Shown: positions 593 through 40,453 of the stretch, one piece after another | How positions within the stretch are numbered: the stretch's first letter is position 1 | Layout: every line of letters starts with the position of its first letter | From: Escherichia coli | GTDB taxonomy: Bacteria; Pseudomonadota; Gammaproteobacteria; Enterobacterales; Enterobacteriaceae | Strand: one strand, 5' to 3' | Assembly: GCF_030013205.1 (NCBI RefSeq) | Contig: NZ_CP122648.1 | DNA length: 64,000 nt | The notes under the pieces: generated by a model | Seen by the model: only the letters and a program-made list of their open reading frames with translations | The model's database searches: none | Told to the model about the DNA's origin: nothing | Made by a program: the position numbers and the translations under genes

Positions 593-607
593 TCCGGCGT
601 TTCGGCA

Positions 608-1084
608 TTAATCCTGGCGATCGTCTTTATGATCAAGGCGGTCGCGGTCATCATCCTTTCGCTGGTACTCACCATCAAAAGTATTACCGCCACCGGTCCC
701 GGCGCTAAAACCGCCGCCAGGCATACGGGAAAAACGCAAATGCGGCATCAACTTCACTGTCAGATGCTTTTGCACCGGCGGTAATAAAAGCAGAAGACCG
801 AGGAAGTCGGTGAAAAAGCCCGGTAATAAAAGCAGCAAACCGGCAATGATCAGCGAAACACTTTTAATCATCTCCGCCGCTGGGTTTTCACCTGCCGCCA
901 TTTTTTGCTGCATCAGCACGAAATTCTTAAAGCCCTGGTTACGTACCAGTGACATACCGATAACTGACGTGAATATAACCAGCACGAGGGTCAGCAATAC
1001 CCCCAATACATGGGCAACCTGAATAAAGATTGAAATCTCAATATAGACATAAAGGAAAATGGCAATAAAAGGTAACCAGCGCAA
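608..1084 (-). CDS. fxsA: FxsA inner-membrane protein
   Basis: 158-aa ORF, N-terminal TM helices plus acidic C-terminal tail; conserved position next to aspA. Confidence 0.88.
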   Translation of the reverse strand: MRWLPFIAIFLYVYIEISIFIQVAHVLGVLLTLVLVIFTSVIGMSLVRNQGFKNFVLMQQKMAAGENPAAEMIKSVSLIIAGLLLLLPGFFTDFLGLLLLLPPVQKHLTVKLMPHLRFSRMPGGGFSAGTGGGNTFDGEYQRKDDDRDRLDHKDDRQD

Positions 1085-1420
1085 AGGTTTCTCCTGTAAT
1101 AGCAGCCGGTTAAACCCGGCTACCTGAATGGGTTGCGAATCGCGTTCAGCTTATATTGTGGTCATTAGCAAAATTTCAAGATGTTTGCGCAACTATTTTT
1201 GGTAGTAATCCCAAAGCGGTGATCTATTTCACAAATTAATAATTAAGGGGTAAAAACCGACACTTAAAGTGATCCAGATTACGGTAGAAATCCTCAAGCA
1301 GCATATGATCTCGGGTATTCGGTCGATGCAGGGGATAATCGTCGGTCGAAAAACATTCGAAACCACATATATTCTGTGTGTTTAAAGCAAATCATTGGCA
1401 GCTTGAAAAAGAAGGTTCAC

Positions 1421-2857
1421 ATGTCAAACAACATTCGTATCGAAGAAGATCTGTTGGGTACCAGGGAAGTTCCAGCTGATGCCTACTATGGTGTTCACAC
1501 TCTGAGAGCGATTGAAAACTTCTATATCAGCAACAACAAAATCAGTGATATTCCTGAATTTGTTCGCGGTATGGTAATGGTTAAAAAAGCCGCAGCTATG
1601 GCAAACAAAGAGCTGCAAACCATTCCTAAAAGTGTAGCGAATGCCATCATTGCCGCATGTGATGAAGTCCTGAACAACGGAAAATGCATGGATCAGTTCC
1701 CGGTAGACGTCTACCAGGGCGGCGCAGGTACTTCCGTAAACATGAACACCAACGAAGTGCTGGCCAATATCGGTCTGGAACTGATGGGTCACCAGAAAGG
1801 TGAATATCAGTACCTGAACCCGAACGACCATGTTAACAAATGTCAGTCCACTAACGACGCCTACCCGACCGGTTTCCGTATCGCAGTTTACTCTTCCCTG
1901 ATTAAGCTGGTAGATGCGATTAACCAACTGCGTGAAGGCTTTGAACGTAAAGCTGTCGAATTCCAGGACATCCTGAAAATGGGTCGTACCCAGCTGCAGG
2001 ACGCAGTACCGATGACCCTCGGTCAGGAATTCCGCGCTTTCAGCATCCTGCTGAAAGAAGAAGTGAAAAATATCCAACGTACCGCTGAACTGCTGCTGGA
2101 AGTTAACCTTGGCGCAACAGCAATCGGTACTGGTCTGAACACGCCGAAAGAGTACTCTCCGCTGGCAGTGAAAAAACTGGCTGAAGTCACTGGCTTCCCA
2201 TGCGTACCGGCTGAAGACCTGATCGAAGCGACCTCTGACTGCGGCGCTTATGTAATGGTTCACGGCGCGCTGAAACGCCTGGCTGTGAAGATGTCCAAAA
2301 TCTGTAACGACCTGCGCTTGCTCTCTTCTGGTCCACGTGCCGGCCTGAACGAGATCAACCTGCCGGAACTGCAGGCGGGCTCTTCCATCATGCCAGCTAA
2401 AGTAAACCCGGTTGTTCCGGAAGTGGTTAACCAGGTATGCTTCAAAGTCATCGGTAACGACACCACTGTTACCATGGCAGCAGAAGCAGGTCAGCTGCAG
2501 TTGAACGTTATGGAGCCGGTCATTGGCCAGGCTATGTTCGAATCCGTTCACATTCTGACCAACGCTTGCTACAACCTGCTGGAAAAATGCATTAACGGCA
2601 TCACTGCTAACAAAGAAGTGTGCGAAGGTTACGTTTACAACTCTATCGGTATCGTTACTTACCTGAACCCGTTCATCGGTCACCACAACGGTGACATCGT
2701 GGGTAAAATCTGTGCCGAAACCGGTAAGAGTGTACGTGAAGTCGTTCTGGAACGCGGTCTGTTGACTGAAGCGGAACTTGACGATATTTTCTCCGTACAG
2801 AATCTGATGCACCCGGCTTACAAAGCAAAACGCTATACTGATGAAAGCGAACAGTAA
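1421..2857 (+). CDS. aspA: aspartate ammonia-lyase
   Basis: 478 aa from ATG at 1421 ([13 protein letters not shown]...), fumarase/aspartase family; track ORF begins 15 codons upstream. Confidence 0.97.
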
Positions 2858-2878
2858 TCGTACAGGGTAGTACAAATA

Positions 2879-2910
2879 AAAAAGGCACGTCAGATGACGT
2901 GCCTTTTTTC
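2879..2910 (+). terminator. rho-independent terminator after aspA
   Basis: GC hairpin ggcacgtc/gacgtgcc followed by T6. Confidence 0.6.
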
Positions 2911-2974
2911 TTGTGAGCAGTAACTTAAAAATAACAATCTAATATCAACTTGTTAAAAAACAAGGAAGGCTAAT

Positions 2975-4276
2975 ATGCTAGTTGTAGAACTCATCATAGT
3001 TTTGCTGGCGATCTTCTTGGGCGCCAGATTGGGGGGAATAGGTATTGGTTTTGCAGGCGGATTGGGGGTGCTGGTTCTTGCCGCTATTGGCGTTAAACCC
3101 GGTAACATCCCGTTCGATGTCATTTCCATTATCATGGCGGTTATCGCCGCTATTTCTGCCATGCAGGTTGCTGGCGGTCTGGACTATCTGGTTCATCAGA
3201 CAGAAAAGCTGCTGCGCCGTAACCCGAAATACATCACGATCCTCGCACCGATCGTGACCTATTTCCTGACTATCTTTGCTGGTACTGGCAACATCTCTCT
3301 GGCGACACTGCCAGTTATCGCTGAAGTTGCGAAGGAACAAGGCGTTAAACCTTGCCGTCCGCTGTCTACTGCAGTGGTATCCGCGCAGATTGCGATCACC
3401 GCATCGCCAATCTCAGCGGCAGTGGTTTACATGTCTTCCGTAATGGAAGGTCATGGCATCAGCTACCTCCATCTGCTCTCCGTGGTCATCCCGTCCACCC
3501 TGCTGGCGGTTCTGGTGATGTCCTTCCTGGTCACTATGCTGTTCAACTCCAAACTCTCTGACGATCCGATTTATCGCAAGCGTCTGGAAGAAGGCCTGGT
3601 TGAACTGCGCGGTGAAAAGCAGATTGAAATCAAATCCGGTGCAAAAACGTCCGTCTGGCTGTTCCTGCTGGGCGTAGTTGGCGTTGTTATCTATGCAATC
3701 ATCAACAGCCCAAGCATGGGTCTGGTTGAAAAACCGCTGATGAACACCACCAACGCAATCCTGATCATCATGCTCAGCGTTGCAACTCTGACCACCGTTA
3801 TCTGTAAAGTCGATACCGACAACATCCTCAACTCCAGCACCTTCAAAGCAGGTATGAGCGCCTGTATTTGTATCCTGGGTGTTGCATGGCTGGGCGATAC
3901 TTTCGTTTCCAACAACATCGACTGGATCAAAGATACCGCTGGTGAAGTGATTCAGGGTCATCCGTGGCTGCTGGCCGTCATCTTCTTCTTTGCTTCTGCT
4001 CTGCTGTACTCTCAGGCTGCAACCGCAAAAGCACTGATGCCGATGGCTCTGGCACTGAACGTTTCTCCGCTGACCGCTGTTGCTTCTTTCGCTGCGGTGT
4101 CTGGTCTGTTCATTCTGCCGACCTACCCGACGCTGGTTGCTGCGGTACAGATGGATGACACGGGTACTACCCGTATCGGTAAATTCGTCTTCAACCATCC
4201 GTTCTTCATCCCGGGTACTCTGGGTGTTGCCCTTGCCGTTTGCTTCGGCTTCGTGCTGGGTAGCTTCATGCTGTAA
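2975..4276 (+). CDS. dcuA: anaerobic C4-dicarboxylate transporter DcuA
   Basis: 433-aa polytopic membrane protein, paralogous to the DcuB ORF at 52105. Confidence 0.95.
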   Translation: MLVVELIIVLLAIFLGARLGGIGIGFAGGLGVLVLAAIGVKPGNIPFDVISIIMAVIAAISAMQVAGGLDYLVHQTEKLLRRNPKYITILAPIVTYFLTIFAGTGNISLATLPVIAEVAKEQGVKPCRPLSTAVVSAQIAITASPISAAVVYMSSVMEGHGISYLHLLSVVIPSTLLAVLVMSFLVTMLFNSKLSDDPIYRKRLEEGLVELRGEKQIEIKSGAKTSVWLFLLGVVGVVIYAIINSPSMGLVEKPLMNTTNAILIIMLSVATLTTVICKVDTDNILNSSTFKAGMSACICILGVAWLGDTFVSNNIDWIKDTAGEVIQGHPWLLAVIFFFASALLYSQAATAKALMPMALALNVSPLTAVASFAAVSGLFILPTYPTLVAAVQMDDTGTTRIGKFVFNHPFFIPGTLGVALAVCFGFVLGSFML

Positions 4277-7120: not shown

Positions 7121-7196
7121 GCCCGGATAGCTCAGTCGGTAGAGCAGGGGATTGAAAATCCCCGTGTCCTTGGTTCGATTCCGAGTCCGGGCACCA
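7121..7196 (+). tRNA. pheU: tRNA-Phe (anticodon GAA)
   Basis: 76-nt cloverleaf sequence GCCCGGATAGCTCAGTCGGTAGAGCAGGGGATTGAAAATCCCC...CCA; anticodon loop TTGAAAA. Confidence 0.95.
7174..7196 (+). repeat. attL core (3' end of pheU), duplicated at 38277-38298
   Basis: 23 nt ttcgattccgagtccgggcacca; 22 of these recur (one G fewer) at 38277. Confidence 0.75.
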
Positions 7197-7393: not shown

Positions 7394-8656
7394 ATGGCAC
7401 TGACTGACGCAAAAATCCGGGCTGCAAAGCCCACTGACAAGGCTTATAAACTCACTGACGGGGCCGGCATGTTCCTGCTGGTTCATCCTAATGGTTCCCG
7501 TTACTGGCGTCTCCGCTATCGTATTCTGGGTAAGGAGAAGACTCTGGCACTTGGTGTGTATCCAGAAGTTTCTCTCTCCGAAGCTCGTACAAAACGGGAT
7601 GAGGCCCGAAAACTGATTTCAGAGGGGATTGACCCTTGCGAACAGAAAAGAGCTAAAAAAGTTGTCCCTGATTTACAGCTCTCTTTTGAACATATTGCAC
7701 GACGCTGGCATGCCAGTAATAAACAATGGGCACAATCACACAGCGATAAAGTACTCAAAAGCCTCGAGACACACGTTTTCCCCTTTATCGGCAACCGGGA
7801 TATCACAACACTCAGTACCCCGGACCTGCTTATCCCTGTTCGTGCTGCAGAAGCTAAACAAATTTATGAAATCGCCAGTCGTCTGCAGCAAAGAATATCT
7901 GCTGTAATGCGTTATGCCGTACAGTCTGGCATCATCAGATATAACCCGGCTCTGGATATGGCTGGTGCATTGACCACGGTAAAACGCCAGCATCGCCCTG
8001 CACTGGATCTTTCACGCCTGCCTGAACTTCTGTCGCGTATTGACGGTTATAAAGGCCAGCCTGTCACCCGACTGGCAGTTATGCTGAATTTACTGGTTTT
8101 TATTCGTTCCAGTGAACTCAGATACGCCCGCTGGTCTGAAATTGATATTGACAATGCCATGTGGACTATTCCAGCCGAACGCGAACCTCTGCCTGGCGTA
8201 AAATTCTCACACCGGGGCTCCAAGATGCGAACACCACATCTTGTGCCACTCAGCAAACAGGCTGTAGCCATACTGGCAGAACTACAGACATGGGCTGGTG
8301 AAAATGGTCTGATCTTTACGGGAGCACATGACCCGCATAAACCAATCAGTGAAAATACTGTAAATAAAGCCCTGAGGGTGATGGGGTATGACACAACCCA
8401 GGATGTCTGTGGCCATGGATTCCGTGCGATGGCATGTAGTGCGCTGATCGAATCAGGTTTGTGGTCCCGCGATGCTGTTGAACGTCAGATGAGCCATCAG
8501 GAACGTAACGGTGTACGCGCTGCGTATATCCATAAAGCCGAACATCTGGAAGAACGCCGGCTGATGCTACAGTGGTGGGCAGATTTTCTGAATGCGAACA
8601 GAGAGAAATGTATCAGTCCGTTTGATTATGCAAAGATCAACAATCCATTAAAATAG
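7394..8656 (+). CDS. int: P4-type tyrosine integrase
   Basis: 420 aa directly downstream of tRNA-Phe; N-terminal MALTDAKIRAAKP... and C-terminal HGFRAMA...RAAY tyrosine-recombinase signature. Confidence 0.9.
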   Translation: MALTDAKIRAAKPTDKAYKLTDGAGMFLLVHPNGSRYWRLRYRILGKEKTLALGVYPEVSLSEARTKRDEARKLISEGIDPCEQKRAKKVVPDLQLSFEHIARRWHASNKQWAQSHSDKVLKSLETHVFPFIGNRDITTLSTPDLLIPVRAAEAKQIYEIASRLQQRISAVMRYAVQSGIIRYNPALDMAGALTTVKRQHRPALDLSRLPELLSRIDGYKGQPVTRLAVMLNLLVFIRSSELRYARWSEIDIDNAMWTIPAEREPLPGVKFSHRGSKMRTPHLVPLSKQAVAILAELQTWAGENGLIFTGAHDPHKPISENTVNKALRVMGYDTTQDVCGHGFRAMACSALIESGLWSRDAVERQMSHQERNGVRAAYIHKAEHLEERRLMLQWWADFLNANREKCISPFDYAKINNPLK

Positions 8657-10385: not shown

Positions 10386-11714
10386 ATGAGCCACAGGGAA
10401 TTGTTCAGCGAATTTCTTGAAAATTTGAATCTTGACCTCAAACAGGCAAAAAAGATCAGCTATCACTATCGAAAAATAACCAAGTCATTAAATCTTGCGT
10501 TCAGAGGAACGAGTTCCCGGGTAGCAAACCGCTTGAAAGTGGGGTCAGTAGGCAGACATACCGCAATAAAAGGCATATCCGATCTGGATATGCTTTATAT
10601 TATGCCCCCCAATCAGTATGAATATTATAACCGTAAGGATAATGGTCAGTCTGCATTGCTTACAGATGTCAGAAACATTCTGGCGGAAGAATATCCTGAC
10701 CAGACTGTGAAAAAGGACAGACTGGTTGTTCAGATCATCTTTAAAAACTTTTATGTCGAGGTTCAACCTGTATTCAGACAGGATGATGACAGCTTTAAAT
10801 TCCCTGAAAGCTATAATGGAGGAGCATGGCGCATTACAAAACCTCTTCACGAAAAGGCGGCCATGACCGCATTTTCGCGAGATAAATCCAATAATCTGCG
10901 CAAGCTGTGTAAAATGATCAGAGCCTGGAAGAACCTGCATGGCGTCAATATGGGTGGCTTACTGATAGACACACTAGCGTATCGCTTTCTTTCATCAACA
11001 TCAGATTATGACAATACCGGAAATGGCAGCCTGGGAGCCCTCGCCAGAGACTTTTTTGAATATCTGTCAAATGAGGAGAGAAAGGAAAGGTATCTCGCGT
11101 TAGGCAGTAATCAGCATGTACGTGTTAAATCTCCCTGGTTTGGCCGGGCAGCGAAACACGCGTATGAATTATGTTGTGATGCCTTAGACGCTGAGGGGGC
11201 TGCCAGTGAAAATGACCGCTGGCGCAAAGTGTTCGGACGAGCCTTCCCCAGACGTAAAGTGGGTATTATGGAAGCCCGTCTTGGTCTGGAATCGCATGCG
11301 GCAGATGCTGTTCCCTGGACCGATACCGAAGAGTTTATAGAGGATAAATATCCGGTGGATATCAGGTACTCACTCAACCTTGACTGTACCGTAACCCAGG
11401 ATGGTTTCCCTCCCAGAAGCCTGAGGGAGATGCTTACCAGAAGATTCCGCCTCTCCGCTCGAAAATCTCTCCTTTTCCGGGCAGACTTGACAGAAATGGA
11501 GGCAGAGGAACCCTACACCGTTATGTGGAAGGTACTGAACGTGGGTGACGAAGCACGCAGAAGAAATATGATCCGGGGACAAATCGTTTCGGACGGCGGC
11601 TACTGTACGAAGAAAGAAACTACCGACTTCCGCGGAGATCACATGGTAGAATGCTATGTGATAAAAAATGAGGTTGTGGTTGCCCGGGCCCAGATTGAAG
11701 TTCCCATAAGCTGA
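10386..11714 (+). CDS. Pol-beta-fold nucleotidyltransferase with C-terminal extension (SMODS/CD-NTase-like plus AGS-C-like region)
   Basis: ATG with SD aaagga; GS-x10-SDLD nucleotidyltransferase signature (VGSVGRHTAIKGISDLD); about 150-aa C-terminal extension; AT-rich gene. Confidence 0.6.
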   Translation: MSHRELFSEFLENLNLDLKQAKKISYHYRKITKSLNLAFRGTSSRVANRLKVGSVGRHTAIKGISDLDMLYIMPPNQYEYYNRKDNGQSALLTDVRNILAEEYPDQTVKKDRLVVQIIFKNFYVEVQPVFRQDDDSFKFPESYNGGAWRITKPLHEKAAMTAFSRDKSNNLRKLCKMIRAWKNLHGVNMGGLLIDTLAYRFLSSTSDYDNTGNGSLGALARDFFEYLSNEERKERYLALGSNQHVRVKSPWFGRAAKHAYELCCDALDAEGAASENDRWRKVFGRAFPRRKVGIMEARLGLESHAADAVPWTDTEEFIEDKYPVDIRYSLNLDCTVTQDGFPPRSLREMLTRRFRLSARKSLLFRADLTEMEAEEPYTVMWKVLNVGDEARRRNMIRGQIVSDGGYCTKKETTDFRGDHMVECYVIKNEVVVARAQIEVPIS

Positions 11715-12848: not shown

Positions 12849-13574
12849 TTATGATGTACATAATACCTTAAAATTATCAACTAGCTGAGCATTAACCTCC
12901 ATCTGACTAATCCCCCATAATGCGGCTAACTGTTTCTCTGCAATCCCACTATCCCATGGCATTAGTGGGTCATTACGAAACTTAGCAAATGGCCCATCTG
13001 TTTCTGTAAGAATGCGTGATTTGGGTATTTTCAAAACTAAGGCCTTACCCTTTATTGTATCGAGCATAGCAGGCCCCACTGAGAACCAGCATCCTAAATC
13101 AATTGCCCTTTCAAGCTGCTTAGGTGTTCCAGTGAACCAATGCAATATTGCCACCCCATCGATATTTTCAATCTCATCAAGCACCGCTGATGCACTTCCC
13201 CGACTATGGATAGTCATAATCTTGCCACCAGCCCGATTTACACTGTTGAGAATGTGTCGGAACACTTTCAATTGAATATCCCAATGTTCTTTAAATCCCT
13301 GTCCACCATCAAGCCCTATTTCCCCTACATACTTAGTTTCCGAAAGCAATGAATCAAACAGGTCTAACTCATGCGATCTTTGATGCGCGATTTGAGGATG
13401 TAGCCCAAGAGCAGTTCGGATTCGTTGACTTTCTTTAGCCAATAAAGAAGTACCATGCCATGCTTTAGGTGTTGTTGTCACCGACAGAATATAAGTCCCT
13501 CGACGTTTACTTTCTTCAGCCACGAGGTCTGGCCGAGGATATAAGTCTAGATGACAGTGCATATCGATGCTCAT
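12849..13574 (-). CDS. qatD: TatD-family metal-dependent DNase (QatD)
   Basis: 241 aa; N-terminal HxH metal motif (MSIDMHCHLDLYP); start ATG overlaps qatC stop (ATGA). Confidence 0.8.
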   Translation of the reverse strand: MSIDMHCHLDLYPRPDLVAEESKRRGTYILSVTTTPKAWHGTSLLAKESQRIRTALGLHPQIAHQRSHELDLFDSLLSETKYVGEIGLDGGQGFKEHWDIQLKVFRHILNSVNRAGGKIMTIHSRGSASAVLDEIENIDGVAILHWFTGTPKQLERAIDLGCWFSVGPAMLDTIKGKALVLKIPKSRILTETDGPFAKFRNDPLMPWDSGIAEKQLAALWGISQMEVNAQLVDNFKVLCTS

Positions 13575-14890
13575 ACTATGTTCTCACTCAGTAAATAGCT
13601 TTCAACCTCATCCAGGCCATCCTTAAATACTTGCTTGAAATTATCAAATTCTGCCGTAGGCAAAGGGCCACTTTTGGCAATCCATGTACCTATTTTCAAA
13701 GTCGATTTCTGCGTGATCGCAATCCTAAGGGCGATCAGGTCGTCCCTGCGATCTATTTCATTCATTACTTTAGCTAAGGACTGGAAAATATATTCAACAT
13801 CTCTACTAATTCCCCCTGCATGAAGTGATGCTCGTCGAATGATACACGGTATACATACCCCACATTGCTGCCCCATTCGTTTCCAATGACTGCAGGATAC
13901 TGTACTTTCCACAATTTTAGATAAGAGCTGCTTATTTGAACATTCGGAGATCATTTTTCCTTTTGTCTTAAACTGATATGGATTGATTATTTGACAAGAA
14001 ATACCGAGCGCATCAAAGATCTTTTGTATGCTCGTAATAAAATGTGGATGTGTTGTTCGTGTGCTCAGCGAACCTATCCGCCGTGGAGTAAGTGGTGCAT
14101 TTAATGAGATAAATCCATTTTCAGGTACGAACAAATCAATCTTTTCTTGTTGAGATATCTCTTGTACGGCACAAGCACCTACGGCCGCAAAGGCAAGAAA
14201 ATTGAGGCTACGAGTTCGCATCGTAATATCAGTCACGCCTTGATAAATGTGTGGGTCAGCATTAATCTCAAAGCGCGAAAATTGGCCACTTAATTTTTCA
14301 GCAATCTGATCTTGACGAGACTTATCCCCCTTATAAGCATGACTAACCAAAAGTGGAGCGCGCCCTGCAGCCAGAAGATCTATTGCACCAATAGCTGAAT
14401 CCAGACCTCCTGAAAATAGGCTGACACAGTCAAGCCCTTTTAGCTTAATCAGACGATGCCTTGAATGCTGGCTATAAGGCTCTGGCGGTGCATAACCATC
14501 GTCACAAAATTCGAAATCCCAGATGTCTCCACTAAGAAAATGCAAAGCACTCTCAAGTTCTTTCTTTAGACTAATCCATCTGGATGGTTCATGAAGGGGG
14601 AGTCGTAACGACAATTGGCGGGTCCAACCATCCTCGGAACTTTCACGCTGAACGAAAGTATCTGCTGCAGTTACTGCTAATGCAACACTCAGAAAATCCA
14701 TGACCTTAGCTGGAAGCTGTACTCCCAAACGTCTGATCCGATCAATCGCAGGATTCCCGATAACAGATATATCTCCGCGCCTCTGACCACTTAATCCATA
14801 TAGCTGAACAGGTAACACTTTCTCACTTGCTGGCGGCAAATGGTGATGTTTATGATGGAAAACTAATTGTGTCACTGGTATGCCTCCCAT
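13571..14890 (-). CDS. qatC: QueC-like PP-loop ATPase (QatC)
   Basis: 439 aa; PP-loop SGGLDS; C-terminal Cys cluster CSHW...CGVCIPC as in QueC. Confidence 0.8.
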   Translation of the reverse strand: MGGIPVTQLVFHHKHHHLPPASEKVLPVQLYGLSGQRRGDISVIGNPAIDRIRRLGVQLPAKVMDFLSVALAVTAADTFVQRESSEDGWTRQLSLRLPLHEPSRWISLKKELESALHFLSGDIWDFEFCDDGYAPPEPYSQHSRHRLIKLKGLDCVSLFSGGLDSAIGAIDLLAAGRAPLLVSHAYKGDKSRQDQIAEKLSGQFSRFEINADPHIYQGVTDITMRTRSLNFLAFAAVGACAVQEISQQEKIDLFVPENGFISLNAPLTPRRIGSLSTRTTHPHFITSIQKIFDALGISCQIINPYQFKTKGKMISECSNKQLLSKIVESTVSCSHWKRMGQQCGVCIPCIIRRASLHAGGISRDVEYIFQSLAKVMNEIDRRDDLIALRIAITQKSTLKIGTWIAKSGPLPTAEFDNFKQVFKDGLDEVESYLLSENIV

Positions 14891-15624
14891 TCTTGCCAGG
14901 CCTCAATAATGGCCTGACGTTCAATTTTTACCATTTGGTTTCGTGTGAACGATCTTATGTTACCGGCAAGTTTTGGTGCCATATGTTTATCAACAACAAC
15001 TTTAATCAATTCCCGGAGTTCAATTTCTGCATGAATTGCCTTTGAAGGTGTATCTGCTTTGTTCCATGCCCTATTAGAATCCATTACCATCTGAAGGAAA
15101 ATACTTTCCGCTAGATAACCAATCATTGTGTCAACAATCACACCATCAGTTATTTTTTGAGGATCGAAAATTTCTACGCCATCAAGAGCCTCCACTAAAG
15201 CATGGTTCATGGCCGCACAGATCTTTTCTGAGTCACCATCCTGTGATGTTAAAGCTTGAGCAATAGTTGATATTGCTATTTCGCATGGAAGGCCTGCCAA
15301 ACTGCCCAAATCGATGCTTGGTTCTCCGGGAGCCGAAGGCATTCCCACTAAAGCCCCAAATAATTCGGCCCCAGCTTGCGTGACACTCCCTAATCGCCGA
15401 GCAGCGTTACTGCTCCCTCCGGAGGCTTTTCGCGCGTAGTGCCCTATGGCTTTTCTGAAATCTGCTCGATTTCCATTTGATACCGCATTTCCCAACGATT
15501 CTCGAAATGGCGCAAACCTCCTTTCTTGCGGCGAGGGTAACGGTTGCTGTGGCTGATCATCAGCCCATGGTGGAACCAGCGGAGAGCCACCTCCTGGACC
15601 TTTACTTGATTGTGATGTTCCCAT
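14872..15624 (-). CDS. qatB: QatB (function unknown)
   Basis: 250 aa Gly/Pro-rich protein between the KAP ATPase and QueC-like genes; start overlaps qatA stop by 1 nt, 3' end overlaps qatC by 19 nt. Confidence 0.65.
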   Translation of the reverse strand: MGTSQSSKGPGGGSPLVPPWADDQPQQPLPSPQERRFAPFRESLGNAVSNGNRADFRKAIGHYARKASGGSSNAARRLGSVTQAGAELFGALVGMPSAPGEPSIDLGSLAGLPCEIAISTIAQALTSQDGDSEKICAAMNHALVEALDGVEIFDPQKITDGVIVDTMIGYLAESIFLQMVMDSNRAWNKADTPSKAIHAEIELRELIKVVVDKHMAPKLAGNIRSFTRNQMVKIERQAIIEAWQEWEAYQ

Positions 15625-17408
15625 TAAGCGTCCTTATTCCATTGTTCATCTTTTAATGCTGCAGTCATCCACGCTGGTCGTTTCATCCCCAACTGTAATT
15701 CCTGTAGATAACGAATTAATATGCTGGCTGCATCTGTTGAGTAGCGGGCCAACAGACATGCGCCGGAAAAGCCTCTGGGCTTACGATCCCAATCTGATAC
15801 CTGCCGTAACTGGTTAATTAAACCTTCCATTACAGGTATTTGCTCCTCACGAGGAAGTGCTTTCAAAAGGTTTTCTGCTGTAGGAGAACTAGTGTTTTTC
15901 AATTCAATTAGTGCATTTAGTACTTCCCGTCCAGATGGCGATAAACCAACCACATATGCACCTATTGGCATAGTTTCTCGGGACAGATATATGGCGGCCC
16001 TTAAGTCAATCCCACCAAGACGAGGTTCAAGTTGGGCCCATTGACTGATGAAAGATTTAGTCGTTGGACTATCAGTCCATGTCTTTGGTGCATCAGTAGG
16101 TATTTGACCGCCATTATCGTCAAGCTGTTTAAGTATCTGGGGAACACCTTGTTCAATATCCACGAGATGATATAAATCAGCGGTGCCATCCACTCCAACA
16201 CAGCGTTCAAAAATTACTAGCTTAGTAATAATTGCTTCATCCAAAGGCATTGCTCGTCGCTTCGCAATTTGAGATCGCATTTTCACAACATTCAACAAGC
16301 GTTTAACGATCCTGGGATTACCATGAATAATTGGAGAGTTGGCTAAAATGGGAGCAATACGGTCAGCACGCGCAAACGCCAGCGCGAGGTTGCTATCATC
16401 CGCTTCACCAGTCATTTTTAAGGCCTCCTGACGTGAGATTGGTTCATCTTTCCAGGATTGCTGTAACGCCTTCTCTAAGCCCTCACGGAGCATAGTTATT
16501 TTTTCGCCTTCTAAGCCATGTTCAATGGCATAAAGCATGAACAGATACGAACGGATCTCACGGACCCCAGCCTTAGGCACCCGAATAGGAACCTGGATTA
16601 GCTTATCCAGATAATCTATTTGATGGCGCTGTGATGCCCCTTTGAAGTAATCAGCCACAGAAGAGCGAATCATGTCCTCATCTGCTGCAATAATAAAGGC
16701 TGTATTAGTCAAGAAAAGGAATAGCCTGATAGCTTCAAGTGTATGGATAGCATTGGCAGGGAGACAGCGGTCTAGGTTATCTATTACCACAATGAGTGGC
16801 TTTCCAAGTTCTTCTAGAATTTCCCCATATTCCTTACGAAAGGCATCAATCTGCTGAGGGGGGCTTTTTTTTGTTTGTGGTTTAATCAAACCACAAGCAG
16901 TTTCTTTACCTTCTTTAGCTATATTGCCTAAAGCCTCATACTCTTCCTGACTCTGGATGCCATCGGTGATATTTCTTAATGCACCAATCCCCCTAGAAAG
17001 CAAACCGCCAGTAGGTAATCCTGCCATTAAAGCTGTACCCTCAGCTAGTAATCCCATAGCTCTAAAACCATCAACTCGACTAAGGAGTCTCTTAGTTTTT
17101 GATATAAGGGTAGAATTACCTTCAGCAGCTTTTGTCAATTCTGTAGCGATGACTTCAAGAAGTGCGGCACGGGCGTCGTCGTACCCCTGATAGAGCCAAG
17201 AGTCAAAATTGATAACAATCCAATCTTTGTCGTCTTGCTCAAGTTTTTGCTCTATCAGTTTTAACAGAGAGGATTTACCTGCCCCCCAGTTTCCAAAAAT
17301 TCCGATAGATACTGGTAACATATCTTTCGTGGTAAGTACATCCACGGCTAACTGAGATACTTCACCAAAATTTAGGTAGTCTTCTGATGACTCTTTGTCT
17401 GACCACAT
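15624..17408 (-). CDS. qatA: KAP-family P-loop NTPase (QatA)
   Basis: 594 aa; Walker A GNWGAGKSS near N-terminus. Confidence 0.8.
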   Translation of the reverse strand: MWSDKESSEDYLNFGEVSQLAVDVLTTKDMLPVSIGIFGNWGAGKSSLLKLIEQKLEQDDKDWIVINFDSWLYQGYDDARAALLEVIATELTKAAEGNSTLISKTKRLLSRVDGFRAMGLLAEGTALMAGLPTGGLLSRGIGALRNITDGIQSQEEYEALGNIAKEGKETACGLIKPQTKKSPPQQIDAFRKEYGEILEELGKPLIVVIDNLDRCLPANAIHTLEAIRLFLFLTNTAFIIAADEDMIRSSVADYFKGASQRHQIDYLDKLIQVPIRVPKAGVREIRSYLFMLYAIEHGLEGEKITMLREGLEKALQQSWKDEPISRQEALKMTGEADDSNLALAFARADRIAPILANSPIIHGNPRIVKRLLNVVKMRSQIAKRRAMPLDEAIITKLVIFERCVGVDGTADLYHLVDIEQGVPQILKQLDDNGGQIPTDAPKTWTDSPTTKSFISQWAQLEPRLGGIDLRAAIYLSRETMPIGAYVVGLSPSGREVLNALIELKNTSSPTAENLLKALPREEQIPVMEGLINQLRQVSDWDRKPRGFSGACLLARYSTDAASILIRYLQELQLGMKRPAWMTAALKDEQWNKDA

Positions 17409-29389: not shown

Positions 29390-29432
29390 AAACGATCGAT
29401 AAAACAGGTATCGATCGCCATCATCGATCGTT
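29390..29432. promoter_or_regulatory. three clustered GATC sites upstream of Ag43 (Dam/OxyR phase-variation switch)
   Basis: GATC at 29394, 29413 and 29426 within 36 bp, about 220 bp upstream of the Ag43 start. Confidence 0.6.
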
Positions 29433-29646
29433 TATAGTGGTTAATGACCTGCGAAAAGGCAGTTGATTCTCTTCATCATGCAGAACGGAATTGCACACAA
29501 CGGACTGATGCTTCTCTGGCGGATGAGAGAGGGGAAGCATTTATGTCCGAGAAAAACCACTTTATCTGACCATGCTGTTTTGTACCTGCCGGTATCCACA
29601 TTTGTGGGTACCGGCTTTTTTATTCACCCTCTGTAAGGAAAAGCTG

Positions 29647-32493: not shown

Positions 32494-32820
32494 TAATCAG
32501 GTCACTCCCCTTCAGGCCCCGGCCATCATGACCGGGGCTTTTTACTTTCAGGGAGCAACAGATATGCCTGGTTGTACATCACGTTTATTGCCCGAAGGCC
32601 CTTTTGCTGCCAAATGGCATCTGAATCGATCACAGTTTGACCGGTTATTACCCGATCCCGATGGGGTTATTGGGTGATCTCCTTCCATAAAAATACGCAG
32701 CTCGCCAGTGAAGGGCTTCTCAGACAATAAACGTCATTCATTTCATCGGTCAGGCCGCGTCTTCTCCGGGAGACGCGGCTTTTTCATTTATACCGCTAAC
32801 TCATTCATAAGGAGCAAATC

Positions 32821-33639
32821 ATGCGATTAGCAAGTCGTTTTGGTCATGTAAACCAGATACGCCGTGACCGTCCGCTGACACATGAAGAACTGATGCACTA
32901 TGTACCCAGTATTTTTGGGGAAGATCGGCATACCTCCCGCAGTGAACGCTATGCGTACATTCCCACCATCACCGTACTGGAAAGCCTGCAGCGGGAAGGT
33001 TTTCAGCCATTCTTCGCCTGCCAGACCCGCGTGCGCGATCCGGGCCGCCGGGGATACACCAGACACATGCTGCGTCTGCGGCGGGCCGGGGAGATAACCG
33101 GACAACATGTCCCTGAAATTATTCTGCTCAACTCCCATGACGGTACCTCCAGCTACCAGATGCTGCCGGGTTACTTCAGATTCGTCTGCCAGAACGGCTG
33201 CGTCTGCGGTCAGTCTCTGGGGGAAGTCCGTGTGCCCCACCGGGGAAATGTGGTGGACAGAGTCATTGAAGGGGCTTACGAGGTAGTGGGCGTTTTTGAC
33301 CGGATTGAGGAAAAGCGTGATGCCATGCAGTCTCTGGTCCTGCCGCCACCGGCACGTCAGGCGCTGGCACAGGCGGCACTGACTTACCGTTATGGTGACG
33401 AACATCAGCCGGTCACCACCGCCGACATTCTGACGCCACGACGCAGGGAGGATTACGGTAAGGACCTGTGGAGTGCATATCAGACCATCCAGGAGAATAT
33501 GCTGAAAGGCGGGATTTCCGGTCGCAGCGCTAAAGGAAAACGTATCCACACCCGTGCCATTCACAGCATCGACACGGACATTAGGCTCAACCGCGCATTG
33601 TGGGTGATGGCAGAAACGCTGCTGGAGAGCCTGCGCTGA
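32821..33639 (+). CDS. DUF945/YfjQ-family protein
   Basis: 272 aa, SD aaggag; CP4-type island protein. Confidence 0.65.
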   Translation: MRLASRFGHVNQIRRDRPLTHEELMHYVPSIFGEDRHTSRSERYAYIPTITVLESLQREGFQPFFACQTRVRDPGRRGYTRHMLRLRRAGEITGQHVPEIILLNSHDGTSSYQMLPGYFRFVCQNGCVCGQSLGEVRVPHRGNVVDRVIEGAYEVVGVFDRIEEKRDAMQSLVLPPPARQALAQAALTYRYGDEHQPVTTADILTPRRREDYGKDLWSAYQTIQENMLKGGISGRSAKGKRIHTRAIHSIDTDIRLNRALWVMAETLLESLR

Positions 33640-33730
33640 TGCTGTTTCCCTGAAAGTGCAGCCCTGACTCACGTCTGTACCAGTCCCCAGGCATTCTTCC
33701 ATTCATTTGCTTTTTATAAGGAATAATCTC

Positions 33731-34216
33731 ATGACAACCTCTTCGCATAATTCCACCACACCTTCTGTTTCCGTAACCGCTGCATCAGGGAATAACCAGT
33801 CTCAACTGGTTGCCACTCCCGTCCCTGATGAACAGCGCATCAGTTTCTGGCCGCAGCACTTTGGCCTCATTCCACAGTGGGTGACCCTGGAGCCCCGTAT
33901 CTTCGGCTGGATGGACCGTCTGTGTGAAGACTACTGCGGTGGTATCTGGAATCTGTATACCCTGAACAACGGCGGGGCATTTATGGCACCCGAACCGGAT
34001 GACGATGATGACGAAACATGGGTACTGTTCAATGCCATGAACGGTAACCGCGCTGAAATGAGCCCGGAAGCCGCCGGTATTGCCGCCTGTCTGATGACGT
34101 ACAGCCATCATGCCTGTCGTACGGAGTGTTATGCCATGACGGTCCATTATTACCGGCTGCGGGATTACGCCCTGCAGCATCCTGAATGCAGCGCCATTAT
34201 GCGCATCATCGACTGA
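33731..34216 (+). CDS. antirestriction protein (YfjX/KlcA-like)
   Basis: 161 aa from ATG with SD aagga; acidic DDDDDE patch. Confidence 0.65.
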   Translation: MTTSSHNSTTPSVSVTAASGNNQSQLVATPVPDEQRISFWPQHFGLIPQWVTLEPRIFGWMDRLCEDYCGGIWNLYTLNNGGAFMAPEPDDDDDETWVLFNAMNGNRAEMSPEAAGIAACLMTYSHHACRTECYAMTVHYYRLRDYALQHPECSAIMRIID

Positions 34217-34230
34217 GCCGGAGAAGCACA

Positions 34231-34707
34231 ATGCAACAACTTTCCTTTCTGCCCGGAGAGATGACAACCAGAGAGCGCAGTCTCATTCTGCGGGCCCTGA
34301 AAACCCTGGACCGCCATCTTCATGAACCCGGTGTGGCCTTCACCTCCACGCATGCGGCACGGGAATGGCTGATTCTGAACATGGCAGGACTGGAGCGGGA
34401 AGAGTTCCGGGTACTGTATCTGAACAACCAGAATCAGCTGATTGCGGGTGAAACCCTCTTCACCGGCACCATCAACCGCACGGAGGTCCATCCCCGGGAA
34501 GTGATTAAACGTGCCCTGTACCACAATGCCGCTGCCGTGATACTGGCACACAACCACCCGTCCGGTGAAGTCACTCCCAGTAAGGCAGACCGGCTTATTA
34601 CGGAACGTCTGGTACAGGCACTGGCCATGGTGGATATCCGGGTGCCGGACCATCTGATAGTCGGTGGCAGCCAGGTTTTCTCCTTTGCCGAACACGGTCT
34701 GCTTTAA
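34231..34707 (+). CDS. RadC-like JAB-domain protein (YeeS/YfjY family)
   Basis: 158 aa; JAMM motif HNHPSGE. Confidence 0.8.
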   Translation: MQQLSFLPGEMTTRERSLILRALKTLDRHLHEPGVAFTSTHAAREWLILNMAGLEREEFRVLYLNNQNQLIAGETLFTGTINRTEVHPREVIKRALYHNAAAVILAHNHPSGEVTPSKADRLITERLVQALAMVDIRVPDHLIVGGSQVFSFAEHGLL

Positions 34708-34775
34708 CCCGTCACCGTCACAACCACATCACACCTGTTTTCACTTTTATCTTCTGTCTTCAGAGGTATCCCACC

Positions 34776-34997
34776 ATGAAAATTATCACCCGTGGTGAAG
34801 CCATGCGCATTCACCGTCAGCATCCGGCATCCCGTCTTTTTCCGTTCTGCACCGGTAAGTACCGCTGGCACGGCAGCACTGAGGCATATACCGGTCGTGA
34901 AGTGCAGGATATTCCCGGTGTGCTGGCCGTGTTTGCTGAACGCCGTAAGGACAGTTTTGGCCCGTATGTCCGGCTGATGAGTGTAACCCTGAACTGA
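34776..34997 (+). CDS. YeeT/DUF987-family protein
   Basis: 73 aa, SD gagg. Confidence 0.6.
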   Translation: MKIITRGEAMRIHRQHPASRLFPFCTGKYRWHGSTEAYTGREVQDIPGVLAVFAERRKDSFGPYVRLMSVTLN

Positions 34998-35015
34998 GTC
35001 AGGAAGGGAATTCTG

Positions 35016-35660
35016 ATGAGCAGAATTATCACCACCACCGTGTATACGCTGGATGAACTTTCCTGCCCGGCACGGGAAAAAGCCCGCGACGGGTACCGTC
35101 AGCATCATGCTGACAGCAACTGGTATGAAAACGTGTATGAAGACTTCAGGGAGGTCTGTGACATTTTCGGGATTAACCTCCGCCAGCGTGTTATCCGGCT
35201 CAGCAGTGGCAGGTTTATGGAAGAGCCGTGCATCTGGTTCAGCGGATTCTGCAGCCAGGGGGACGGAGCCTGTTTTGAAGGACGCTGGCACTGGCAGTCA
35301 GCAACAGCCAGGAGAATCCGGGAGTATGCCCCACAGGACCGTGAAATTCATCGTATCGCGGATGCCCTGCAGTCGGTACAGAAGCGTAACTTCTGGCAGT
35401 TACAGGCTGAAATCAGTCACCGGGGACGTTACTGCCATCCGTACAGCATGGATATCACCGTCACCCGGAACAGTCCGACTGGTCAGGTAATGACAACCGA
35501 TGCGGAAGCCGCTGTCAGCGAAGCCCTGCGCGACCTGGCCTTCTGGTTGTACCGTCAGCTGGAAAACGAGTACGACTGGCTGACCTCAGACGCCGCTGTG
35601 GATGAGGCCCTTCTCATCAACGAATACACCTTCACCGAAGCCGGTCTGCGCGCCGGCTGA
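35016..35660 (+). CDS. hypothetical protein (Cys/Trp-rich)
   Basis: 214 aa, SD ggaaggg; sits between yeeT-like gene and cbeA. Confidence 0.5.
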   Translation: MSRIITTTVYTLDELSCPAREKARDGYRQHHADSNWYENVYEDFREVCDIFGINLRQRVIRLSSGRFMEEPCIWFSGFCSQGDGACFEGRWHWQSATARRIREYAPQDREIHRIADALQSVQKRNFWQLQAEISHRGRYCHPYSMDITVTRNSPTGQVMTTDAEAAVSEALRDLAFWLYRQLENEYDWLTSDAAVDEALLINEYTFTEAGLRAG

Positions 35661-35709
35661 CTCGTCATCGTTAAACTATCATTCACCGATTTTCTGTGAG
35701 GATTTTATC

Positions 35710-36078
35710 GTGTCAGACACACTCCATGAAACAAATTATCCCGACGACAACAACGACCGCTCCTGGTGGGGGCTACCCTGCACCGTGACGCCCTGTTTCA
35801 GGGCACGTCTGGTGCAGGAAGGGAACCGGTTGCATTACCTTGCAGACCGTGCCGGTATCAGAGGCCGGTTCAGCGACGCGGATGCGTACCATCTGGACCA
35901 GGCCTTTCCGCTGCTGATGAAACAACTGGAACTCATGCTCACCAGCGGTGAACTCAGTCCCCGCCATCAGCATACCGTCACGCTGTATGCAAAAGGGCTG
36001 ACCTGCGAAGCCGACACCCTCGGCAGTTGTGGCTACGTTTATATGGCTGTTTATCCGACGCCCGAAACGAAAAAGTAA
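35710..36078 (+). CDS. cbeA: CbeA/YeeU-family type IV antitoxin
   Basis: 122 aa from GTG 35710 with SD gagga (MSDTLHETNYPDD...WWGLPCTVTPCF...). Confidence 0.8.
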   Translation: MSDTLHETNYPDDNNDRSWWGLPCTVTPCFRARLVQEGNRLHYLADRAGIRGRFSDADAYHLDQAFPLLMKQLELMLTSGELSPRHQHTVTLYAKGLTCEADTLGSCGYVYMAVYPTPETKK

Positions 36079-36167
36079 ATAATCAGAATAACCTTCTGCT
36101 CCGGCCAGGTGCTTTCACCACACCACTTTCCCATTTCTCATCTCTGCATATCAGGAAAATCTTCAGT

Positions 36168-36545
36168 ATGAAAACATTACCTGTATTACCCGGGCAGGCG
36201 GCCGGTTTACGCCCGTCTCCGGTTGAAATCTGGCAGACACTGCTTACCAGACTGCTGGACCAGCATTACGGCCTCACGCTGAATGACACGCCGTTTGCCG
36301 ATGAACGTGTGATTGAGCAGCATATTGAGGCAGGCATATCACTGTGTGATGCGGTGAACTTTCTCGTGGAAAAATACGCGCTGGTGCGTACCGACAAGCC
36401 GGGATTCAACGCCTGTACCCACTCTCAGTTAATAAACAGCATCGATATCCTCCGGGCCCGCCGGGCAACAGGCCTGATGACCCGCGACAATTACAGAACG
36501 GTGAACAATATCACCCGGGGTAAACATTCGGAGGCGAAACGATGA
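36168..36545 (+). CDS. cbtA: CbtA/YeeV-family toxin
   Basis: 125 aa (MKTLPVLPGQAAGLRPSPVEIWQ...) directly downstream of the antitoxin. Confidence 0.8.
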   Translation: MKTLPVLPGQAAGLRPSPVEIWQTLLTRLLDQHYGLTLNDTPFADERVIEQHIEAGISLCDAVNFLVEKYALVRTDKPGFNACTHSQLINSIDILRARRATGLMTRDNYRTVNNITRGKHSEAKR

Positions 36546-37030
36546 AACTGACCCTGACACTGGAAGCCGACAGTATTAATGTGCAGGCACTGAACATGGA
36601 GCGAATTGTTGTTGACGTCGATGGTATTGAGCTCGCTGAACTGATTAATAAGGTCGCTGAAAACGGTTATTCACTCCGCGTGGTGGATGCTCCCGAACAG
36701 CAGACAACGGATTCTCCACCATCGTTTACGGCCCTTACCGGCATACGCTGCAGTACCGCACATATCACGGAAAAGGATAACGCCTGGCTGTACTCGCTGT
36801 CACACCAGACCAGTGACTTCGGTGAATCAGAATGGATTCATTTCACAGGTAGCGGATATCTGTTACGTACCGATGCGTGGTCATATCCGGTTCTGCGGCT
36901 TAAACGCCTGGGGCTGTCAAAAACGTTCCGTCGTCTGGTTGTCACACTCATCCAACGTTATGGCGTCAGTCTCATTCATCTGGATGCCAGCGCTGAATGT
37001 CTGCCGGACCTGCCCACTTTCGACTGGTAA
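36542..37030 (+). CDS. YeeW-like protein
   Basis: 162 aa, start overlaps cbtA stop (ATGA). Confidence 0.55.
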   Translation: MKLTLTLEADSINVQALNMERIVVDVDGIELAELINKVAENGYSLRVVDAPEQQTTDSPPSFTALTGIRCSTAHITEKDNAWLYSLSHQTSDFGESEWIHFTGSGYLLRTDAWSYPVLRLKRLGLSKTFRRLVVTLIQRYGVSLIHLDASAECLPDLPTFDW

Positions 37031-37031
37031 C

Positions 37032-37239
37032 CAGGAACAACATGAAATCATTAACCACAGAAACCGCACTGGATATTCTGATTGCGTGGCTACAAGACAA
37101 TATCGACTGCGAATCGGGAATTATCTTTGACAACGATGAGGATAGAACGGATTCGGCAGCACTGTTGCCCTGTATCGAACAGGCCAGAGAGGATGTCCGT
37201 ACCCTGCGTCAGCTGCAGTTTCTGCAACAGAACCGGTGA
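37032..37239 (+). CDS. small island protein (YpjJ-like)
   Basis: 68 aa from ATG with SD agga. Confidence 0.4.
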
Positions 37240-37323
37240 GTCTTACTCACCAGACTTCATTCCACTGACGCCAGCCTGAATACGGCTGGCGTTTTCGTTT
37301 ATCTGCAAAAAGGAATATCGATT

Positions 37324-38914: not shown

Positions 38915-40453
38915 ATGCAACAACCTGTAGTTCGCGTTGGCGAATGGCTTGTTACTCCGTCCATAAACCAAATTAGCCGCAATGGGCGTCAACTTACCCT
39001 TGAGCCGAGATTAATCGATCTTCTGGTTTTCTTTGCTCAACACAGTGGCGAAGTACTTAGCAGGGATGAACTTATCGATAATGTCTGGAAGAGAAGTATT
39101 GTCACCAATCACGTTGTGACGCAGAGTATCTCAGAACTACGTAAGTCATTAAAAGATAATGATGAAGATAGTCCTGTCTATATCGCTACTGTACCAAAGC
39201 GCGGCTATAAATTAATGGTGCCGGTTATCTGGTACAGCGAAGAAGAGGGAGAGGAAATAATGCTATCTTCGCCTCCCCCTATACCAGAGGCGGTTCCTGA
39301 CACAGATTCTCCCTCCCACAGTCTTAACATTCAAAACACCGCAACACCACCTGAACAATCCCCTGTTAAAAGCAAACGATTCACTACCTTTTGGGTATGG
39401 TTTTTTTTCCTGTTGTCGTTAGGTATCTGTGTAGCACTGGTAGCGTTTTCAAGTCTTGATACACGTCTTCCGATGAGCAAATCGCGTATTTTGCTCAATC
39501 CACGCGATATTGACATTAATATGGTAAATAAAAGTTGTAACAGCTGGAGTTCCCCGTATCAGCTCTCTTACGCGATAGGCGTGGGTGATTTGGTGGCGAC
39601 ATCACTTAACACCTTCTCCACCTTTATGGTGCATGACAAAATCAACTACAACATTGATGAACCGAGCAGTTCCGGTAAAACATTATCTATTGCGTTTGTT
39701 AATCAGCGCCAATACCGTGCTCAACAATGCTTTATGTCGGTAAAATTGGTAGACAATGCAGATGGTTCAACCATGCTGGATAAACGTTATGTCATCACTA
39801 ACGGTAATCAGCTGGCGATTCAAAATGATTTACTGGAGAGTTTATCAAAAGCGTTAAACCAACCGTGGCCACAACGAATGCAGGAGATGCTCCAGCAAAT
39901 TTTGCCTCATCGTGGTGCGTTATTAACTAATTTTTATCAGGCACATGATTATTTACTGCATGGCGATGATAAATCATTGAACCGTGCCAGTGAATTATTG
40001 GGTGAGATTGTTCAATCATCCCCAGAATTTACCTACGCGAGAGCAGAAAAAGCATTAGTTGATATCGTGCGCCATTCTCAACATCCTTTAGATGAAAAAC
40101 AATTAGCAGCACTGAACACAGAAATAGATAACATTGTTACACTACCGGAATTGAATAACCTGTCCATTATATATCAAATAAAAGCGGTCAGTGCTCTGGT
40201 AAAAGGTAAAACAGATGAGTCTTATCAGGCGATAAATACTGGCATTGATCTTGAAATGTCCTGGCTAAATTATGTATTGCTTGGCAAGGTTTATGAAATG
40301 AAGGGGATGAACCGGGAAGCAGCTGATGCATATCTCACCGCCTTTAATTTACGCCCAGGGGCAAACACCCTTTACTGGATTGAAAATGGTATATTCCAGA
40401 CTTCTGTTCCTTATGTTGTACCTTATCTCGACAAATTTCTCGCTTCAGAATAA
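38915..40453 (+). CDS. cadC: membrane-integrated transcriptional activator CadC
   Basis: 512 aa; N-terminal winged-helix, single TM (FTTFWVWFFFLLSLGICVALVAF), periplasmic sensor. Confidence 0.95.
   Translation: MQQPVVRVGEWLVTPSINQISRNGRQLTLEPRLIDLLVFFAQHSGEVLSRDELIDNVWKRSIVTNHVVTQSISELRKSLKDNDEDSPVYIATVPKRGYKLMVPVIWYSEEEGEEIMLSSPPPIPEAVPDTDSPSHSLNIQNTATPPEQSPVKSKRFTTFWVWFFFLLSLGICVALVAFSSLDTRLPMSKSRILLNPRDIDINMVNKSCNSWSSPYQLSYAIGVGDLVATSLNTFSTFMVHDKINYNIDEPSSSGKTLSIAFVNQRQYRAQQCFMSVKLVDNADGSTMLDKRYVITNGNQLAIQNDLLESLSKALNQPWPQRMQEMLQQILPHRGALLTNFYQAHDYLLHGDDKSLNRASELLGEIVQSSPEFTYARAEKALVDIVRHSQHPLDEKQLAALNTEIDNIVTLPELNNLSIIYQIKAVSALVKGKTDESYQAINTGIDLEMSWLNYVLLGKVYEMKGMNREAADAYLTAFNLRPGANTLYWIENGIFQTSVPYVVPYLDKFLASE

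Follow-up and report, generated by a model that had tools for sequence, protein, structure and literature searches.

The question raised by the locus studied here is whether an open reading frame (ORF) standing directly upstream of a toxin-antitoxin (TA) pair belongs to that pair or only travels with it. The locus lies in 64,000 nucleotides of Escherichia coli DNA (contig NZ_CP122648.1 of assembly GCF_030013205.1; "the window" denotes this entire stretch), and the ORF, which we label X, is located on the + strand at 35016..35660, with an ATG at 35016 and a TGA at 35658-35660; these limits and the length of 214 amino acids are exactly those given in an earlier reading made from the sequence alone. 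X encodes an acidic alpha+beta protein of the DUF8835 / PHROG 5162 family. The sequence-only reading had considered X either an additional regulator of the cbeA-cbtA module or a separate cargo gene. The first proposal did not survive, as 79 of 80 loci examined in other species lack CbeA and CbtA, X shows no homology to CbeA, and the CP4-44 pair of E. coli K-12 has lost X. The second is supported, in that X is a conserved and autonomous accessory gene carried by mobile elements, which in the Enterobacteriaceae is co-inherited with the TA pair in one co-directional block. We thus consider it highly probable that X is not a TA component. The fuller reading, that X is an autonomous mobile-element accessory gene with an early, host-directed role in establishment or counter-defence and no part of the CbeA-CbtA system, has in our judgement about an even chance of being correct, and the specific establishment or counter-defence role taken for itself somewhat less than that.

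X is a real gene under purifying selection, far beyond a chance ORF, because the exact protein (identical to RefSeq WP_000086748.1) is present on 613 contigs, full-length X occurs in 1,942 of 5,426 complete E. coli genomes (36%; up to 8 places per genome), relatives exist in Alphaproteobacteria, and the ratio of nonsynonymous to synonymous substitution rates (dN/dS) is 0.12-0.29 against six homologues ranging from E. coli to Methylosinus. Between E. coli alleles this ratio is 0.25, and against a 64%-identical E. coli paralogue it is 0.22. The two ORFs overlapping X (34704-35291 on the - strand and 35053-35490 on the + strand) are without comparable support for being genes. Translation signals are in place: the Shine-Dalgarno-like AGGAAGGGA, read directly from the sequence at 35001..35009 (+), lies within the 18 nucleotides past the stop of the DUF987/YeeT-like gene (34776-34997) and about 7 nucleotides 5' of the ATG, in agreement with the good ribosome-binding site noted earlier. 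The description of the protein as rich in cysteine and tryptophan is literally true (6 Cys, 2.8%; 7 Trp, 3.3%), though family alignments show that the cysteines are not conserved among more distant relatives. With a G+C content (GC) of 0.566 and a third-position value (GC3) of 0.665, X matches the flanking genes from DUF932 to CbeA (GC 0.55-0.57) and is therefore compositionally native to its block. A recent insertion from a high-GC donor was considered and ruled out on the same grounds, and also by the deletion scars described below, which imply that X is ancestral. In E. coli O157:H16 98-3133, whose DNA is identical here, WP_000086748.1 is annotated as a hypothetical protein in the order Ag43, DUF932, antirestriction, RadC, DUF987, X, YeeU-family antitoxin, CbtA, DUF5983, DUF957, DUF4942.

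The strongest evidence on the relation between X and the TA pair comes from outside the Enterobacteriaceae. A scan with one genome per species gave 526 loci, the best 80 of which were examined; 79 of them are of alphaproteobacterial type and one is from Salmonella diarizonae. CbeA, CbtA (sought within 10 kb) and DUF987 were found at a single one of the 80, the Salmonella locus, so that the co-occurrence across genomes on which the sequence-only reading had proposed to check its suggestion amounts to one species-level locus in 80 outside E. coli. In the remaining 79, which are clusters of conjugative elements, a very stable gene order recurs, consisting of ArdC, DUF2958, sometimes RadC, a ParB-like protein of about 700 amino acids, an ORF of 138 amino acids and X, followed 3' of X by sometimes DUF4326 or Antirestrict, an AAA_34/Helicase_C_4 protein of about 1,440 amino acids, a Toprim protein and YAcAr. 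Among the 80 loci, the large AAA_34/Helicase_C_4 protein was counted as a neighbour in 72, the ParB-like protein in 53, Toprim in 52, ArdC in 40, RadC in 15 and Antirestrict in 10. X relatives were also found on 113 plasmids, mostly of Rhodobacteraceae. Homologues in unrelated loci that lack any link to the TA pair, which the earlier reading had named as the finding that would speak against a module regulator, are thus plentiful in these 79 loci, on plasmids and in phages.

X of the E. coli island is 58-63% identical to its counterparts in the alphaproteobacterial elements; in the same comparison (window 33728-35660 against loci L011-L090) the proteins residing with it reach only 33-36% (Antirestrict) and 33-42% (RadC). 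This higher conservation suggests that the target is strongly conserved or that catalysis constrains the sequence; it could reflect unusually strong constraint or, alternatively, more recent movement between lineages. In the Tistrella element X is located about 2 kb upstream of a nikA-relaxase region, and this proximity was seen in 2 loci, with no relaxase within 10 kb in the others; a general placement of X in a "leading region" beside the relaxase was therefore rejected, its support being confined to those 2 loci. Of the 80 loci, 73 contain the 138-amino-acid ORF, and in 69 of these 73 it shares 8 nucleotides with the start of X. Its product is ferredoxin-like, has 1,749 relatives without informative names, gave no Pfam match and has no homologue in the window. 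The idea that it represents a cryptic CbeA or DUF987 homologue, and hence an ancient pair of a CbeA-like protein and X, found no support, the hhalign probabilities being 0.1% and 0.2%.

Phages provide a third setting. Relatives of X were detected in 83 phage genomes on deposit and, among the viral contigs of IMG/VR, in at least 532; in the loci inspected they stand in arrays of small accessory ORFs without TA genes. No neighbour of X is conserved among 79 phage loci, the top neighbour cluster reaching 10 of 79. In Caulobacter jumbo phages X lies inside the terminal repeats, and in Klebsiella phage Muenster it is gene 006 (L103 3001-3612), located 3 kb from the genome end in a 20-kb terminal repeat. 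As a side observation, a phage ORF of about 225 amino acids with a "WFPGFY" motif adjoins X in 10 of 79 viral loci (e.g. L157-L160 5324-6001); that it is a paralogue of X is not demonstrable, hhalign giving a probability of only 6%.

Within the Enterobacteriaceae the picture is different, and X was always found within a block running from DUF932 through antirestriction, RadC and DUF987 to CbtA, on either side of CbeA. It precedes CbeA in E. coli and in Salmonella Brij-type islands. In Klebsiella michiganensis and S. enterica diarizonae it stands between CbeA and CbtA, with a 4-nucleotide overlap at the CbeA stop in the latter. In E. coli the block is far more frequent than X: DUF987-CbeA-CbtA was located at 13,806 places in 4,932 of the 5,426 genomes, any trace of X in 2,682 genomes (3,913 places), and the complete DUF987-X-CbeA-CbtA arrangement in 1,806 genomes. 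X is thus mostly without CbeA and CbtA outside the Enterobacteriaceae, and the TA pair is without X in most E. coli blocks. Nor do the two neighbouring proteins resemble each other: X and the adjacent CbeA gave no BLASTP alignment at E <= 100, the X family profile matched the CbeA alignment with an hhalign probability of 0.3%, and X has no match to PF06154 (CbeA/YeeU) in the Pfam search. From these comparisons X appears not to be a homologue of CbeA, with which it shares immediate adjacency in Enterobacteriaceae, an operon-like unit and rare fusions caused by loss of a stop codon; unlike CbeA, it is nearly twice as long.

The spacers of X-less blocks explain how the two arrangements are related. 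In K-12-type CP4-44, the 73-nucleotide spacer between yeeT and cbeA consists of the X ribosome-binding site and the first 8 codons of X (ATGAGCAGAATTATCGCCACTACC) joined to about 40 nucleotides that follow the X stop (L092 523-595 compared with window 35006-35040 and 35686-35724). A second E. coli class, exemplified by strain ET665, has kept the last approximately 109 nucleotides of the X coding sequence together with the 3' flank (L101 423-584 compared with window 35552-35724). The K-12-type (64% coverage) and ET665-type (69% coverage) classes account for most of the sampled X-less E. coli blocks. These junctions show that X was deleted at least twice independently, each time leaving the TA pair intact; the K-12 yeeT-cbeA junction is thus a deletion derivative, the X-bearing arrangement being common and ancestral. 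The sequence-only reading had taken X as an exception within an otherwise stereotyped block in which the yeeT-like gene is directly followed by the antitoxin; this has to be reversed, as the X-less junction in K-12 is itself the scar of an X deletion, and the textbook CP4-44 arrangement is then derived and not the prototype. The K-12 pairs CbtA/CbeA, YkfI/YafW and YpjF/YfjZ have been characterised as two-gene type IV systems (PMC5371832, PMC5624674); among these modules, the absence of X was checked at CP4-44.

The same chromosomal site also shows what happens where X has been retained. In the sequence type 131 (ST131) strain JJ1886, the CP4-44 locus beside yeeA-sbmC-dacD still contains X, and in this allele (L091 5241-6269) X and cbeA share a frame, with 15 nucleotides between them. 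Loss of the X stop codon in JJ1886-type alleles gives rise to X-CbeA read-through proteins of 342-343 amino acids (P0016, P0021, P0003), nearly all of which are single-sequence clusters, mostly on one contig each (P0016 on 4, P0021 on 8). Among the other variants, P0001 (283 amino acids) has a tandem duplication of the first approximately 69 residues of X; it comes from just one 2.5-kb contig and could be either a true internal duplication or an artefact of assembly.

Read-through entries of this kind may plausibly have given rise to the name "antitoxin", under which thousands of GenBank entries list the X protein and which has already spread to phage genomes. In the Klebsiella phages Muenster and K64-1 (gp417, L102 3001-3612) the X homologue is called a "YeeU-like antitoxin", and the Muenster record states explicitly that the name was taken from a BLAST match to one mislabelled E. 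coli entry. The label is applied inconsistently, is backed by no profile and, judged by the sequence comparisons, is unfounded. Neither X nor 31 diverse relatives matched a Phd/YefM-type antitoxin in Pfam or NCBIfam at E <= 1, and X has no gene of the RelE, Doc or ParE type beside it in the window. Phd/YefM-type antitoxins are proteins of about 80-90 amino acids. The database name is all that they have in common with X, which has 214 amino acids and no toxin partner of the RelE, Doc or ParE type.

What kind of protein X is can be stated in terms of its family. A profile search matched residues 2-210 of the 214 to PHROG 5162 ("unknown function") with E=1.1e-35, and E. coli copies with 89-92% DNA identity carry the RefSeq product name "DUF8835 domain-containing"; the DUF8835 assignment is taken from these product names on close homologues, the Pfam copy searched being older than DUF8835. 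In E. coli KSEC38 and OZ547091 the product is spelled "DUF8835 domain-containing pootine", a typing error in the public annotation. By homology X thus belongs to DUF8835 / PHROG 5162, from which it does not differ; both entries are mere catalogue labels without an assigned function, and membership gives no mechanism. The family comprises 6,398, 3,206 and 1,132 clusters at E <= 1e-3, 1e-10 and 1e-30, respectively (clusters at 50% identity). Almost every member is a stand-alone protein about 200-220 amino acids long, and the few longer relatives contain no recognisable extra domains. Domain fusions were accordingly ruled out as a hint at function, the X-CbeA fusions being stop-codon losses. Pfam-A, NCBIfam, PADLOC (a library of defence-system models, not of anti-defence proteins) and the sequences of the Protein Data Bank gave no match to X as a single sequence, to 31 diverse relatives or to the family profile. 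No paper mentioning WP_000086748, DUF8835 or phrog_5162 was found in the literature. The profile and structure searches proposed by the sequence-only reading therefore succeeded in part: they yielded the PHROG 5162 family, but neither a functional annotation nor a solved fold.

The family is uniformly acidic, with a median isoelectric point of 4.7 and a median net charge of -17, and its alignments reveal several conserved segments. The most conserved motif, S-G-F-C-S-Q-G-D-G-A-C-F, corresponds to X codons 76-87 (35241..35276, + strand); G77, F78, Q81, G82 and G84 are invariant, and D83, A85 and F87 are at least 90% conserved. Besides this invariant loop, GF-x-SQGDG-A-x-F in its family form, there are an N-terminal helix ELSD-x-AKEKA, the segments P-x-D-x-EL...Q and G-x-YYH, and a C-terminal segment W-x-Y..LE.EY.Y..S.E...E.I.AN.Y.F...G. 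An AlphaFold2 (AF2) model of X (predicted local distance difference test score, pLDDT, 86; predicted template modelling score, pTM, 0.81) shows a single alpha+beta domain in which the codon 76-87 motif forms a loop between beta-strands, with low pLDDT at residues 79-81 as expected of a loop; this loop is a candidate functional site. The structure search returned uncharacterised phage proteins only as relatives of the model and matched no solved structure.

The proposal of an early, host-directed role builds on the anti-restriction and DNA-processing companions of X and on its location in the terminal repeats of jumbo phages. X is found clustered with ArdC, PF03230 and RadC in loci of the integrative and conjugative element (ICE) type, and it occurs also in CP4-type islands, plasmids and phages. 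Iyer et al. (2017; PMC5512222) describe a "polyvalent protein" repertoire with early conflict functions in conjugative elements and phages, and the domains neighbouring X, RadC and CbtA among them, are part of it; the companions of X have ArdC-N/MPTase, ParB, RadC, superfamily-2 helicase, Toprim and CbtA in common with it; unlike polyvalent proteins, X was seen stand-alone only and matches no LPD or other Pfam domain from that study. According to our proposal, X would be made early after the element enters the cell (the terminal repeats holding it in several jumbo phages would be expected to enter first) and would act on the host as an establishment or counter-defence factor. It would probably work alone, as a binding protein that blocks some well-conserved component of the host, or might possibly be a small enzyme, and the invariant GF-x-SQGDG loop together with conserved acidic residues could form its functional surface. 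Adjacency to the TA pair would then reflect descent of the whole block and not joint function. X resembles the anti-restriction proteins KlcA/ArdB (PF03230), ArdA, Ocr and ArdC in that they occur in the same element types and gene clusters (PF03230 or ArdC within a few kb) and are small, stand-alone and acidic, at positions that could allow early expression. It differs from them in having no sequence match to these families, a fold that matches no solved structure and, compared with the co-resident PF03230 protein, far higher conservation (58-63% as against 33-36% identity).

Several points weigh against this proposal. X is without similarity to any anti-restriction or other family catalogued in Pfam, the literature gave no experimental work on any member of its family, and the anti-defence role is deduced by guilt by association only. 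Anti-defence proteins often evolve fast, and the high conservation of X is unusual for one of them. The ParB, helicase and Toprim neighbours in alphaproteobacterial elements fit a role in element DNA replication or processing equally well, and a relaxase is close by in only 2 loci. Finally, in the Enterobacteriaceae X was seen only within the CbeA/CbtA block, sometimes between antitoxin and toxin, so that a lineage-specific link between X and the TA pair keeps some small probability in this family.

X might instead serve the DNA metabolism of the element itself, as an enzyme or accessory factor in replication, processing or partition alongside the ParB-like protein, the helicase and Toprim. 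We regard this as unlikely, though we keep it in play mainly because X is unusually conserved. The very stable synteny with these three partners in alphaproteobacterial elements, the translational coupling to the conserved ferredoxin-like protein of 138 amino acids, and the (near-)invariant residues E14, D43, Q81, D83, D108, Q122, E185 and N202, which might form a metal-dependent active site, are what it would account for. On the other hand, X shows no recognisable catalytic fold or motif, is kept in non-conjugative, degenerate CP4-type islands without helicase, ParB or primase neighbours, occurs in lytic phages amid small accessory ORFs without a conserved replication partner, and has often been lost in E. 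coli while the remaining block persists. That last fact could also mean that X has no function in E. coli and is carried along as the decaying relic of an ancestral conjugative element, given at least two deletions, the existence of frameshifted, truncated or duplicated variants (P0043, P0063, P0001) and the degenerate state of the host islands. Decay of this kind is improbable in view of the dN/dS of 0.22-0.25 within E. coli, the intact 214-amino-acid copies in 1,942 genomes at up to 8 places each, and a window copy that has preserved its reading frame and all family motifs.

Very improbable, in our view, is that X forms a third part of the enterobacterial CbeA-CbtA module, whether as regulator, chaperone-like adaptor or second antitoxin. 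Its strict adjacency to the pair in Enterobacteriaceae, before CbeA or between CbeA and CbtA, its place in the same co-directional unit and the tolerance of read-through fusions of 342-343 amino acids in some strains would all be expected of such a part, but the wider record speaks against it. The fusions amount to a single stop-codon loss in an allele whose frames happen to coincide, mostly as single-sequence, one-contig clusters, and the "YeeU-like" phage name goes back to a mislabelled entry. X has neither homology to CbeA nor a Phd/YefM-type Pfam match; its full-length form is present in 36% of E. coli genomes as against 4,932 of 5,426 for the block, and of the 13,806 block places no more than 3,913 have X or its remnants. 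Two independent deletions left the TA pair intact, including that of the experimentally characterised K-12 system (PMC5371832, PMC5624674), and 79 of the 80 species-level loci, as well as the phage and plasmid loci inspected, have no CbeA or CbtA nearby.

On present evidence X is a functionally unassigned addition to a known gene set, and a new kind of system is not indicated. Going beyond the early, host-directed role, it is conceivable, if rather doubtful, that DUF8835 / PHROG 5162 represents a new and widespread class of early effectors with an unseen fold, whose GF-x-SQGDG loop would hit a conserved bacterial target such as a defence hub or a core protein of DNA or nucleotide metabolism, with the 138-amino-acid protein as a coupled partner in alphaproteobacterial ICEs. 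The family is among the larger function-less families of mobile elements. Approximately one third to one half of the complete genomes of E. coli have a member, as do hundreds of species of Alphaproteobacteria and hundreds of viral contigs. Because it is widespread, has no recognisable fold and stands consistently beside anti-restriction genes, X is a well-defined and cheap candidate for screens for anti-defence or host-takeover functions. The value of the finding lies in a corrected mis-annotation, in the recognition of the K-12 arrangement as a deletion and in the flagging of a large fold-orphan family.

In the window, X is the central member of a co-directional unit of nine genes on the + strand (32821..37239; Pfam and RefSeq annotation of identical sequence), comprising DUF932, an antirestriction protein (KlcA/ArdB-type, PF03230), RadC, DUF987, X, CbeA, CbtA, DUF5983 and DUF957. 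Its upstream neighbour is the YeeT-like DUF987 protein of 73 amino acids (34776..34997, +; PF06174, E=6e-40), and downstream follow the CbeA/YeeU type IV antitoxin of 122 amino acids with a GTG start (35710..36078, +; PF06154, E=1e-53; RefSeq annotation) and a CbtA-family toxin of 126 amino acids (36165..36545, +; PF06755, E=9e-57). A terminator scan found terminator-like + strand hairpins at 32752-32781 and 37267-37293, which bracket the nine genes, and the spacing suggests that the unit from DUF932 to DUF957 is a single transcript.

The island hosting X is a CP4-type tRNA-Phe island. Its left end is marked by a tRNA-Phe gene (7121-7196) followed by a P4-type integrase (7394-8656), and cadC (38915-40453) lies just past its right end, a position that suggests the pheU attachment site. 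After the integrase come defence-like cargo, a DUF3987 protein, a YeeP-like GTPase, Ag43 and then the X block. The defence-like cargo in the left half includes a SMODS + AGS_C nucleotide cyclase of the cyclic-oligonucleotide-based anti-phage signalling system (CBASS) type at 10386-11714 (+) and a cluster of TatD-DNase, QueC-like and KAP-family NTPase genes at 12849-17408 (-). An Rfam match to "IS102 RNA" (RF00124; 68 bits) at 29392-29628 lies just upstream of the Ag43 autotransporter ORF and extends into its start.

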